This document shows, piece by piece, positions 3,001 to 6,000 of a DNA stretch of 11,573 bases. Position 1 is the first letter of the stretch; each line of letters begins with the position of its first letter. The DNA comes from a virus, in UHGV virus genome UHGV-1580203. The stretch is one strand, 5' to 3'. A program made the position numbers.

Positions 3001-6000
3001 GCATAATGTCTTTGGTCTTCGCTTCGACAGACTCCATCAGGGAGCGTTTGCCGCTGAAGTCATTATCTTCAAAATCAGCGGTCTGGTTTGCTTCAATCGT
3101 GATTTTACGGACTGCCGCAGCCGCTTTTGTTGCTTGAATGGCGTCACCATTAGCATCAAAGCCCACAAGGTAGTCGGCCCAGTCTTCGATCCATTCTGCC
3201 AGTGACCTCTGGGAGTTACGCTCGCCGTTAACAGACAACAGAGCAGAGAACGGTGCTGTCTTTTTCAGTTTGAGAGTGGCAGTGTTATCTGCGTGACCTG
3301 GCTCATCAATAGTACCCAGGTTAAGCACACTGACGGCACGCATATTATCGGCATCGATAAAGCAGCGGGTGCCTTCATCTGCAAGATCTTTAGAATAACG
3401 GGTAAAATCATCGATGCTGGCAGTGGAAAGTGCACCACGGAAACGGAAGCGATTTAAATTAAATTTTTCCAGATCATGAATGCGGAAATTCTCAGGCAAT
3501 GCCACAGCATCGGCACCAATCTTACTGATAATTTCATTAACACCCTGAGCAGAAATAAGGGCATGGATTTGATTAATTGCGGTTGCGTCTAAGTTCTGAG
3601 ACATAATAAGTCCTCACTATATAAAGATATTCAGTGATGAGATAAATAATCAGTTTATTACGAACGATATTAACGACCTGCTGCGCGGAGTTTTCCGTCA
3701 GGTTCACCGGCAAGAGTCAGTAATTGTCCCTGGTCTTCCTGCAGAATAGTCAGGCGACCACCGCGATTGACATACATCGGCGTTTCGGTGGTGTCTTCTT
3801 CGGAAATTTTCCCGCGGTTAGTTGGGCGAACATATGAGAGTTTGTGTTTGATTTTCACACGGTTCTCATCAAACGGTTCGATTTCCAGATTGAGTGAGAC
3901 CTTCCCTTTGGTTTTCGTGTTCATCACACCGGAAGCGACCTCACTGAGAACTGCGCCGATTTTGGTTTCAAATACGCCGCCGTCCAGCTCCCCGATAAAT
4001 GCCTGCACATCAGTACTGCGTTCGCTAGCCATTTTGCTGCTCCTCATCATATCGACCCTGCAAGGTCGGTTGGTTTCTCCACAAAACAGAGAAGAACACC
4101 TGCGGTGGCAGCCGCCCGGATGGATTGGGTTATGAGCCCGTCGTCCGGTGATGCTCTTCTCTGTTTTGTAAAAAGAGCGGTGCCAGCCGGAAGCAAGTGT
4201 ACAAACTGGTACCGCCAAAGCAGTGGCTGTTGTGGTGCCGGGTGCCTCCCGGTGCCTGGCGAAGGTTGCACACCAGGCGGGTGGGTATCCACAGAAGGTC
4301 GACTGTCAGCCTCAACCTTAACCCGCGTGCGCTGAGCCGCATTCACCACAACGCTAAGGATTCTCTCTGGTTGAAAATACTTAGCTGTTATGTGCCTGCT
4401 TTTAGCCACATCAGGCGAGGTGGACCTGGTTATTCCCCAACAACAAGGATTCGGTTAATCTTGATACCCCCAATAACATGGTGATTATTTAAGATGGACA
4501 AATTTGATAGAAGTGCACAAAGGCAGTTGTTACAAATACTGTATGATGCTCATCCTTATGAAATTTCTGATGATGCGTTGCAGTCTGTTCGTGACGCATT
4601 TGGAGATGATAATGTCCTAATTTCGAACTTAATTTATCTCGAAGAACATGGCTTGATTAAGAATGCTCTTGATTATTACTTGGATGGCATAAATATAAAT
4701 ATTCCTGAATTAAGAATTACTAAAGATGGAATTGATTTCATTCGTGATGATGGAGGTCTTAAAGCTATTCTTGGGATTATGACAATAAGATTGCATGATG
4801 AGACTCTCTGTGAACTTGAACGTATCATCAATAGTTCTACTTCTGCCACGACTGAAGATAAGAAGAAATTACTCTCTCAGCTTCGAACGCTTCCTGCCGA
4901 CGCCATAAAACAGCTGACGATTCGATTACTTGGTCAGGGGCTTGACCATCTGCCGGACGTATTTCACGTAATTCAAAAAGCCCTCCATTCTCTGTAAATT
5001 CTGATTCTGGTCGGATTAGACAGAATCGTCCCCATCCGACCTGCTTACTAAGTAGAATCCAGAATTCGTCTTGTTGGTTGGTGCTGATAAAAAATCCATT
5101 AGGATGAACGTAAGCACAGAATATGACCATAGAACCCTCTTTTGTTACGGGGATACTAAGATTGTTAAAGAGCTAAGCGTCCTGTAGGGCGCTTTTTTGT
5201 TGCTAACGAATCATCCTGGACTTCATATGCCCCAGGCGGCTACTTCGTGGGCGTCCTGCCTGTTCGTTTTTGACATTTACTGACTGCTTACGACACATGC
5301 ACCGTGTTGCAACCAGATTTTGTTGTAATCCTGTAGTTGGTCTGGAACAAAAGATAAAATTAAATTGCGAGATATGCAAGTGATATTTGCGAGATATGCA
5401 AATTTATAGGTAATAAAAAGCCACCTTTCGGTGGCCGATGGATGGGATATTGAGGTTAATTATGTCTCTTAAGGGTTTGCGACTGACTGATTAAGACCTT
5501 TCCAAAGACCATGAATCGGTGTTCGTTTTCGCTAGTAATTCCCCATTCACGGTAAATCTGGTTATCAGAAATCACCAGCAGTTTGTCAGGAATCATTTGA
5601 AGTCTTTTAACGTATATTTTGTCATCAAAACCAAAGACATATATACCATCACCATCAAACTGATTGATGCTGACATCAACGAAGATGAGATCTCCTGGCT
5701 CAATGGTTGGACACATACTGTCCCCACGAACGTTGATAACTTTGATGTGATTGGCTGGTCGTCCGCCGAACATTGATACAGCATTATCAGTTCTGTATTC
5801 GATGGCATGAATCACATCAATGACATCACCGCCCTGGATAAGGCCATTTCCCGCACTGGCACTGATATCCAGCATTTCAATACGGAACACATCCTTCACC
5901 TGCGCAACATCCTCATTATTACTGTTTTTATATACAGTATTACTTTTGTGGGCAGAGGTAAAGAGATCAGCAATATCAACACCTAAGCTCTTGGCAATAT

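Follow-up and report, generated by a model that had tools for sequence, protein, structure and literature searches.

Two adjacent structured RNA units, an sRNA-17-like RNA and a covarying leader motif, upstream of yfdP in a lambdoid prophage

The UHGV virus genome UHGV-1580203 (11,573 nt, referred to below as the window) contains, between yfdP and an AT-rich orphan gene, a stretch of 461 nt (4033-4493) that is left unannotated in the RefSeq annotation of the identical sequence of Escherichia coli NCTC86. A preliminary description singled out a helix-dense block of about 440 nt in this stretch as a candidate large structured RNA. We found that the block is real RNA structure on the yfdP (minus) strand and that it consists of two adjacent units. 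The first, about 40% of the block, is a variant of a known small RNA (sRNA), sRNA-17, and ends in a predicted intrinsic terminator, hairpin C; the remainder holds element D, a widely conserved leader motif that is well supported by covariation and is apparently undescribed in the literature as far as searched. With moderate confidence, we interpret the block as the promoter-distal untranslated leader of the pL operon, in which an sRNA unit ending at an insulating terminator would be followed by the operon's own structured 5' untranslated region (UTR), with D as a processing signal.

Structure, strand and coding potential of the block

All complementarities listed in the preliminary description exist, namely, 4081-4105/4145-4169 with its 15-bp perfect core, 4229-4237/4344-4352, and 4353-4365/4373-4385, and the hairpin at 4177-4215 and the sub-hairpins at 4104-4116 and 4116-4148 were seen in both minimum free energy (MFE) and consensus folds. 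The G+C content is 0.55-0.61 over positions 4000-4399. The minus strand folds with an MFE of -178.3 kcal/mol (z = -5.26), a value that none of 100 shuffled sequences equaled. The hexamer GGTGCC is present four times on the plus strand (4179-4256), as described, and 13 times in the whole window, against 5.4 expected; viewed on the minus strand, it corresponds to GGCACC repeats in the conserved 3' end of domain B (see below) and in hairpin C.

The strand, which had been left open, proved to be the minus strand, as indicated by the pattern of G-U pairs, the asymmetry of covariance model scores, and the primers used in the mapping of sRNA-17. The G-U pairs of D (UG in 29 and 35 sequences, GU in 10) exist on the minus strand only, and the covariance model of D, R1, scored window positions 4067-4177 at 117.4 bits on the minus strand vs 36.3 bits on the plus strand. 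Over about 80 loci, the R1 scores were 91-130 bits in the sense and 25-44 bits in the antisense orientation, with exactly one copy of D per locus. The reverse assignment, to a long plus-strand 5' leader of the orphan gene that starts at 4494, can draw on the fact that the helices are complementary on that strand too, with an MFE of -167.4 kcal/mol (z = -2.36), but we consider it extremely unlikely: the G-U pairs become A-C mismatches, the covariance model loses about 80 bits, D is kept in many loci without the orphan gene, the homologous sRNA is a minus-strand RNA, and a promoter-like site at 4461-4488 would set the start of the orphan-gene transcript at or next to the ATG. Of the two placements originally offered, a structured leader just upstream of the yfdP ribosome-binding site is the right one. 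The promoter-like site itself (TTGATA, 16 nt, GATTAT; plus strand) ends 5 nt short of the ATG at 4494, so that the orphan-gene mRNA may be leaderless or nearly so.

Likewise, the region is non-coding, as had been proposed: alignment of homologues revealed conserved RNA structure with compensatory changes, and no credible open reading frame (ORF) emerged. The 89 substitutions between the window and phage ST64B show an even distribution among the codon positions of each of the five ORFs, the indels between the two sequences span 1, 2, 9, and 20 nt, and the length of D across homologues varies in steps that are not multiples of three. ORFs of 70-120 aa occur in four frames, among them a 120-aa minus-strand ORF (4047-4409), but given the lack of third-position bias in any frame, the frame-breaking indels, the compensatory changes that rewrite both helix arms, and the absence of any RefSeq annotation, a small protein encoded here is next to inconceivable.

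At gathering thresholds, Rfam yielded no matches in the block, and a permissive search returned only a sub-threshold match to STnc100 and two chance matches (ftsZ-DE and hairpin ribozyme). The statement that the block resembles no known RNA family thus holds for D, which matches no Rfam family, and fails for about 180 nt that correspond to a variant of the published sRNA-17 and resemble Rfam STnc100.

The block is not a single RNA of about 440 nt. Its modules occur independently: D is found without domain B in many genera, domain B is found without C and D in a Buttiauxella locus (L011), and B has exchanged its interior in mEp460-type prophages. Furthermore, the mapped 3' end of the RNA of a close homologue falls between the modules, at window position 4171, and this end and the terminator separate B and C from D. 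A large single-function RNA would agree with the full-region MFE fold, which nests the domains and is 5 standard deviations better than shuffled sequences; however, the long-range outer pairs of this fold have no comparative support, and together with the independent shuffling of the modules among phages, this makes such an RNA very improbable.

The sRNA-17-like unit and its terminator

sRNA-17 is a 193-nt RNA of E. coli K1 strain RS218, encoded in an mEp460-like prophage and characterized by 5' and 3' rapid amplification of cDNA ends (RACE) and Northern blotting (Sun et al. 2020, PMC7719688). This RNA lies on the yfdP strand, since its Northern probe and 5'-RACE primers are antisense to the sequence of the minus strand; its 5' end is the first G of GUUGUGGUGAAUGCG, and its 3' end lies in the U-tract after hairpin C, according to the supplementary alignment and the primers (PMC7719688). 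We aligned the window with mEp460 and with a strain that carries the exact sRNA-17 sequence and stands in for RS218 (alignment A6). The 5' helix strand GUUGUGGUGAAUGCG, the 3' helix strand, the linker AGCCACUGCUUU, hairpin C, and the U-tract (UCUUUU) are identical, such that both ends of sRNA-17 are matched in sequence (5', GUUGUGGUGAAUGCG...; 3', ...CCGCUCUUUU after the terminator hairpin), whereas the interior differs. Homology over the full 193 nt fails because the window interior at approximately 4340-4240 is not alignable with that of RS218 and mEp460. Given the same ends, linker, and terminator but a different interior, the window carries an allelic, mosaic sRNA-17 variant of 182 nt with an STnc100-like interior (4352-4171, minus strand; ends predicted by homology to the RACE-mapped RNA), composed of domain B, a 13-nt linker (AGCCACUGCUUU), and terminator hairpin C. 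NCTC86 is listed among the genomes with a "degenerative" sRNA-17 (PMC7719688).

Domain B (4229-4352, minus strand) is a multi-hairpin domain that is closed by the 9-bp helix GUUGUGGUG/CACCACAAC and ends in the hairpin CCGGGAGGCACCCGG. The sub-threshold STnc100 match (RF02076) covers minus-strand positions 4231-4350 and model positions 31-147 of 206, with 35.6 bits against a gathering cut-off of 47 and an E-value of about 4e-6; canonical STnc100 copies score 57-148 bits. From this similarity, domain B appears to be a divergent relative of STnc100/PasD. The 20-mer CCGGGAGGCACCCGGCACCA is present in at least 120 IMG/VR viral contigs. There, the canonical copy has a strong promoter separated by about 8 nt from (GCA)UGGUGAAUCCCCC...; a variable middle part, CACCGGGAGGCACCCGGCACCA(UGC), the linker, and a terminator then follow. 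In the closing helix, covariation of the outer pairs extends over 60 flank combinations (GCAU/AUGC, GUGU/ACAC, UUGU/ACAA, and GCGU/ACGC among them).

Three further observations concern this domain and its canonical relatives. Canonical STnc100 copies, equipped individually with a promoter and a terminator, stand in tandem, up to four in a row, directly beside phage tRNA genes (L045 2265-3380, L054 342-1038, and L039 8044-8560). In the window, a possible pseudoknot would pair AAGGUU (~4319-4314) with the loop sequence AACCUU (~4270-4265) of the CCUGG/CCAGG hairpin; in ST64B, this AACCUU is retained but the competing local ACCUU carries mutations, an observation suggestive of the pseudoknot, and canonical STnc100 copies show a similar loop-to-upstream pairing. 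In L011 (~2300-2500), a B-type domain is directly followed by GUGGAGAACUAAC, hairpin E, and a yfdP-like start, with hairpin C and D absent, an arrangement indicating that B and D may be interchangeable at this position.

Directly upstream of the predicted 5' end of the sRNA lies hairpin A (4353-4385, minus strand), an inverted repeat GCUAAGUA...UCCUUAGC with 13-nt arms that are 85% complementary, which is part of the MFE fold; it may act as DNA, in an operator or promoter region, rather than as RNA. The flank that contains hairpin A is identical in E2863 and SfV and different in mEp460. A -10-like hexamer, GAGAAT, occupies positions -13 to -8 relative to unit 1 with no -35 element, and a minus-strand promoter scan found nothing here. 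The conserved UGCUGUGUGUAGUC linker of SfV-type loci was also considered as a promoter and rejected, being absent from the window.

Hairpin C is formed by GGCGGUACCAG...CUGGCACCGC (4215-4177, minus strand) and is followed by the U-tract UCUUUUU (4176-4170). Its loop of about 19 nt is longer than a simple terminator scan allows. The terminator architecture, a GC-rich stem of 5-14 bp located at most 3 nt from a run of 5-8 U, is present in 46 of 50 diverse homologues, with 33 different stem sequences among the homologous C hairpins, and the 3' RACE end of sRNA-17 maps in the U-tract after this hairpin. Judging from this architecture, hairpin C and the U-tract are most readily interpreted as an intrinsic terminator that would end the sRNA and insulate the operon downstream.

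Element D, a covarying leader motif

Element D (4081-4169, minus strand) is a three-way junction composed of a 20-bp stem D1 (4169-4150 with 4100-4081), a hairpin D2 whose lower stem covaries and whose apex is invariant, and a short hairpin D3 (GCGGCUGCCACCGC). For the comparative analysis, loci encoding YfdP relatives were fetched from 31 species-level genomes, and 35 non-redundant D sequences were aligned with MAFFT (alignment A3), with the consensus derived by RNAalifold. In the consensus, 98.1% of the cells are paired, compared with 44-61% in slid-partner controls; 12 pairs, with 62 cells, are changed on both sides, and none of 500 shuffles reached any of the four measures. The length of D1 is invariant, without a single indel in the 35 sequences.

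Together with hairpins C and E, D is the most widely conserved part of the block, found in Leclercia, Enterobacter, Kosakonia, Phytobacter, Mangrovibacter, Pseudocitrobacter, and others, and in altered form in Providencia, and the D loop motif is present in at least 120 further viral contigs. In Providencia, D takes the form of a simple long hairpin whose apex differs, which makes the duplex the most widely kept feature. The distance from D to the start codon is about 45-200 nt, and the first genes after it differ, encoding a YfdP-like protein, two kinds of RdgC, a YfdR-like HD nucleotidase, or an excisionase; therefore, D belongs to the operon rather than to yfdP. In contig L228, the order is cI, a terminator, the operators with pL, about 25 nt, and D, and hairpin C is absent. 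D is a once-per-phage element that heads the recombination/excision operon of N-less lambdoid prophages belonging to a very common group.

The apex of D2 (4127-4139, minus strand), GGGCUCAUAACCC, consists of three G-C pairs that close a 7-nt loop, CUCAUAA, with CAU at 4134-4132. It is identical to the anticodon stem-loop of the E. coli initiator tRNAfMet, with 14 identical bases shared with metZ (CGGGCTCATAACCC); three consecutive G-C pairs at this location distinguish the initiator tRNA. The G-C pairs and CUCAU are invariant in the 35 sequences, in which the stem below covaries freely. Immediately 3' of D1 is a conserved single-stranded, Shine-Dalgarno-like segment, GGAGAAACCAAC (4067-4080, minus strand; family consensus GUGGAGAAACUAAC), that also follows domain B in L011. 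This segment can pair with the U-tract through U-A and U-G pairs and is kept in L228 even though the U-tract is absent there. Next comes hairpin E (4051-4070, minus strand), CGACC-UUGCAG-GGUCG, with a stem that covaries between loci and a loop that keeps UGCAG, as in GGCGG-UGGCAG-CCGCC and GGCC-AGUGCAG-AUGGCC.

The loops of D3 (4101-4114) and E (4058-4063) are recurrently of the UGCAG type (UUGCAG, UGGCAG, and GUGCAG) on covarying stems, and could represent a paired protein-binding motif. Three copies of the sequence TGTGGAGAAAC are found in the window (0.28 expected), at 4073-4083 (minus), 7030-7040 (plus), and 11357-11367 (plus); both plus-strand copies lie just ahead of gene starts (7047 and after 11353), and the sequence may be a preferred ribosome-binding context in this phage. 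Two other candidates were rejected: a leader peptide starting from the GUG of GUGGAGAAAC has neither a conserved length nor a conserved stop position, with some variants stopping after three codons, and pairing of the CUCAUAA loop with the ribosome-binding site or start codon yields merely 3-5 inconsistent pairs.

Taken together, the apex and the Shine-Dalgarno-like GGAG point to an added link with translation initiation or to a possible decoy role. We entertain tentatively that D (4169-4081, with GGAGAAAC and E) might represent a new class of cis-acting phage leader RNA that operates through mimicry of the initiator-tRNA anticodon arm, either recruiting or blocking the 30S P site or IF3 and thereby governing translation of the entire early-left operon, or serving as a decoy or sensor for host factors with affinity for tRNAfMet, such as the methionyl-tRNA synthetase (MetRS) or a VapC-type anticodon nuclease. 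About half of the complete E. coli genomes and prophages of many Enterobacterales genera contain D. The operator of thrS, which mimics the anticodon arm of tRNAThr, is a precedent for such a mechanism. In the version that takes D as a translation-initiation control device, the apex would act as an initiator-tRNA arm and GGAG as a Shine-Dalgarno sequence, binding the 30S subunit (P site and anti-Shine-Dalgarno), IF3, or MetRS and in this way gating or priming translation of the first gene, whichever it is; in a related version, D would decoy or sense tRNAfMet-cleaving nucleases. This mimicry would account for the 14 nt in common with metZ, including the three G-C pairs, for the invariance of these pairs and CUCAU above a covarying stem, for the location of GGAGAAAC right after D1 and its conservation independent of the U-tract, and for the constant placement of D ahead of start codons regardless of gene identity. 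Still, we consider it rather unlikely as the main function, given that loop positions 37/38 vary (AA, UA, and UC), that CAU is absent in one member from Enterobacteriaceae (L032) and in the Providencia members, and that no start codon follows GGAG at Shine-Dalgarno spacing. Moreover, the likeness ends at the three G-C pairs: a tRNA-like gene was sought and rejected, as there is no full cloverleaf, Rfam detects only the tRNA-Arg fragment at 1-49, and ARAGORN finds no tRNA in the window, so that the resemblance to tRNAfMet is confined to the anticodon arm. Should the tRNAfMet-like tip have a function, D would be a rare example of an mRNA leader that mimics the initiator tRNA and would offer a handle on early-gene timing without an N protein in these phages.

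The other proposed function, antitermination, has to be assessed against the pL region (5346-5400, minus strand), which contains two operators, TTGCATATCTCGCAA, that share the TTGC-N7-GCAA type with those between cI and cro, and follows the cI terminator (5436-5419). Just downstream of pL, in the same leader as the block but outside it, we identified element P (5202-5273, minus strand), which consists of GAACAGGCAGGACGCCCACGAAGUAGCCGCC, a covarying hairpin with 5-12 compensatory changes per pair (RNAalifold, alignment A5), and GGAUGAUUCG. The covariance model of P, R2, scored 96.9 bits at the window site, and P follows many different pL promoters in D-bearing phages. In L014, which has HK022-type operators, P sits where HK022 has putL, and P and HK022 putL/putR have the short motifs GAAC(R)GGC and AGGAUGA in common. 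Neither R1 nor R2 (E-values up to 10, filters off) matched the HK022 pL-pR region, and MFE folds provided no link of putL/putR to D or P. Because R2 does not recognize HK022 put, the likeness of P to put is positional and falls short of demonstrated membership.

A put-like, cis-acting processive antiterminator that replaces the N protein, embodied in the block or in D, would fit the absence of an annotated N gene between cI and the yfdP homologue in SfV, ST64B, and mEp460, the published description of LLS (PMC12315714), a related phage with part of D, as lacking N and possibly depending on put, the location of D in L228 at the place of putL in HK022, and the superficial similarity of the adjacent D2 and D3, about one base apart, to the two stems of put. 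Several observations speak against this and render it improbable. More than 1.1 kb separates D from pL in the window, and because hairpin C precedes it, D cannot help the polymerase pass C; in addition, the block itself includes a terminator. A second, nutR- or putR-like copy of D was sought with R1 in 90 loci, including downstream of pR, and none was found. The put position is held by P in most D-bearing phages, including the one with HK022-type operators. Finally, the boxA-like CGCUCUUUUUAC of the window was rejected as a boxA or nut site, since the homologues (GCCCUUUUU, GCACUUUUUU, and CACCUUUUUU) keep only the stem end and the U-run. By analogy with put, antitermination is probably more likely to reside in P than in the block.

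Proposed role, prophage setting and known systems

Under the leader interpretation that we prefer, transcription entering unit 1 (4352-4171) from upstream in the lysogen would stop at C, producing a discrete RNA of about 180 nt and preventing expression of the early genes from yfdP to xis and int. Unit 2 (4169-4033), with D, GGAGAAAC, hairpin E, and the ribosome-binding site, would be the true 5' UTR of the operon. After induction, pL transcripts starting near 5340 would carry P, read through C, and transcribe D; this read-through, and all that concerns the action of D, we infer. D would act post-transcriptionally on the mRNA, most likely as a double-strand-specific (RNase III-type) processing or stability signal, and a processing role, already named as an option in the preliminary description, is possible for the block. 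This role is favored because the duplex length is invariant, the duplex is kept in Providencia, and the position resembles that of the RNase III site in the lambda N leader. Cleavage would detach the upstream leader with the sRNA and leave a defined 5' end beside GGAGAAAC, and the tRNAfMet-like apex might add a second function as a binding site for the 30S subunit, for IF3 or MetRS, or for an anticodon nuclease.

Several points weigh against this interpretation. Cleavage of D by RNase III is something we infer, and a processing hairpin leaves the invariant apex GGGCUCAU..CCC, the conserved GGAGAAAC, and the recurrent UGCAG loops unaccounted for. In mEp460, P is absent, which leaves the passage of pL transcripts through C there without explanation. 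The flank upstream of 4352 differs from the ArcA-bound promoter fragment of RS218 and has no good -35 element, so that unit 1, the expression of which in the strain of the window is predicted from homology, may be made only within longer transcripts. Nor does the published deletion settle the effect of the sRNA on yfdP. In the sRNA-17 deletion mutant, yfdP is up 95-fold (PMC7719688), and the deletion, according to the primers, keeps hairpin C (PMC7719688, Table S2). The strongest reported "targets" of sRNA-17, yfdP and yfdR, are the genes immediately downstream (PMC7719688, Table 1). The published RNA ends at a terminator that abuts the leader of the early-left operon, which bears on how the rise of about 95-fold is read. 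The deletion presumably involved a pKD-type cassette, with a resistance gene that would point toward yfdP. With such a cassette orientation and with targets that lie immediately downstream, a polar cis effect is plausible, and the 95-fold rise cannot be assigned and is usable neither way.

The window represents a lambdoid prophage of the SfV/ST64B/mEp460 type that is integrated at a tRNA-Arg gene, and the region is 100% identical to that of E. coli NCTC86 (CP019778). The 3' part of the tRNA gene, cut by the window edge, lies at 1-49 (plus strand; Rfam tRNA, 36.2 bits; tRNA-Arg according to the NCTC86 annotation) and, being next to the integrase gene, marks the prophage attachment site. The minus-strand genes are int (68-1231), followed in order by yfdT, yfdR, and yfdQ, and yfdP (3670-4032), with the ribosome-binding site GAGGAG at 4045-4040 and the ATG start codon at 4032-4030 (RefSeq annotation of NCTC86 and direct reading). 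On the other side of the block are the orphan gene (phrog_3983, function unknown; 4494-4997, plus), a cI-like repressor gene (5456-6148, minus), and cro (6246-6506). No Pfam match was obtained for YfdP, the orphan protein, or a 97-aa ORF. The unannotated stretch, or parts of it, is present in 2861 of 5426 complete E. coli genomes and in phages SfV, SfII, SfIV, and ST64B (75% identity), and partly in mEp460, cdtI, and Stx2c phages. E. coli K-12 prophage CPS-53 (L263 7248-7604) has retained yfdP and its ribosome-binding site and lost B, C, and D; accordingly, K-12 transcriptome data are uninformative on these elements. The right arms of mEp460, SfV, and ST64B encode IsrK and C4 antisense RNA (P1-type antirepressor control; L002 5674-5862, L003 5986-6174, and L004 5732-5920), for which the window contains no matches at the gathering threshold.

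Among the known systems, sRNA-17 is the closest. Unit 1 resides at the same locus, between the immunity region and yfdP of an mEp460/SfV-type prophage, and on the same strand, and has the same first 15 nt, GUUGUGGUGAAUGCG, 3' strand of the closing helix, linker, terminator hairpin, and U-tract. It differs in the central ~100 nt, which are unrelated, as expected of mosaic replacement, the window interior being STnc100-like and the RS218/mEp460 interior having no Rfam match, and in the upstream flank, which is unlike the ArcA-bound promoter fragment of RS218, where sRNA-17 is expressed as a discrete RNA that is repressed by ArcA (PMC7719688). With STnc100/PasD, the window shares the closing helix UGGUG...CACCA followed by an AAU junction, a second hairpin at the equivalent position, the terminal hairpin CCGGGAGGCACCCGG, the linker, an intrinsic terminator, and a lambdoid prophage origin (bioRxiv 10.64898/2026.05.13.724894). 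Apart from its lower score (35.6 vs 47 bits, over model positions 31-147 only), the window copy differs in its location in the early-left leader, where no such strong promoter is apparent; canonical copies are found near Q, lysis, and tRNA genes of the late region, often in tandem arrays, with a strong promoter (TTGACA, 17 nt, -10) about 8 nt upstream. The comparison joins sRNA-17, STnc100, and PasD in one architectural family with cassette-like swaps of the interior.

The put sites of HK022 are likewise cis-acting structured RNAs in the early leader of an N-less lambdoid phage, and P sits at the putL position. The block, by contrast, starts about 1 kb from pL, contains a terminator, has D after terminator C, and has no putR-like copy; the put position is occupied only by P, outside the block, and by D in L228. 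Other comparisons concern the RNase III hairpin of the lambda N leader and the RNase III sites of T7 early mRNA. Like these, D is a long, regular duplex of conserved length between a promoter-proximal element and the first ribosome-binding site; it differs by its three-way junction with sequence-invariant loops, and the comparison is one of placement, not of sequence. The thrS operator also places an anticodon stem-loop upstream of a ribosome-binding site, as the apex of D does. D, however, mimics the initiator tRNAfMet rather than the cognate tRNA of a synthetase, does so in a phage operon, and presents a single rather than a double mimic.

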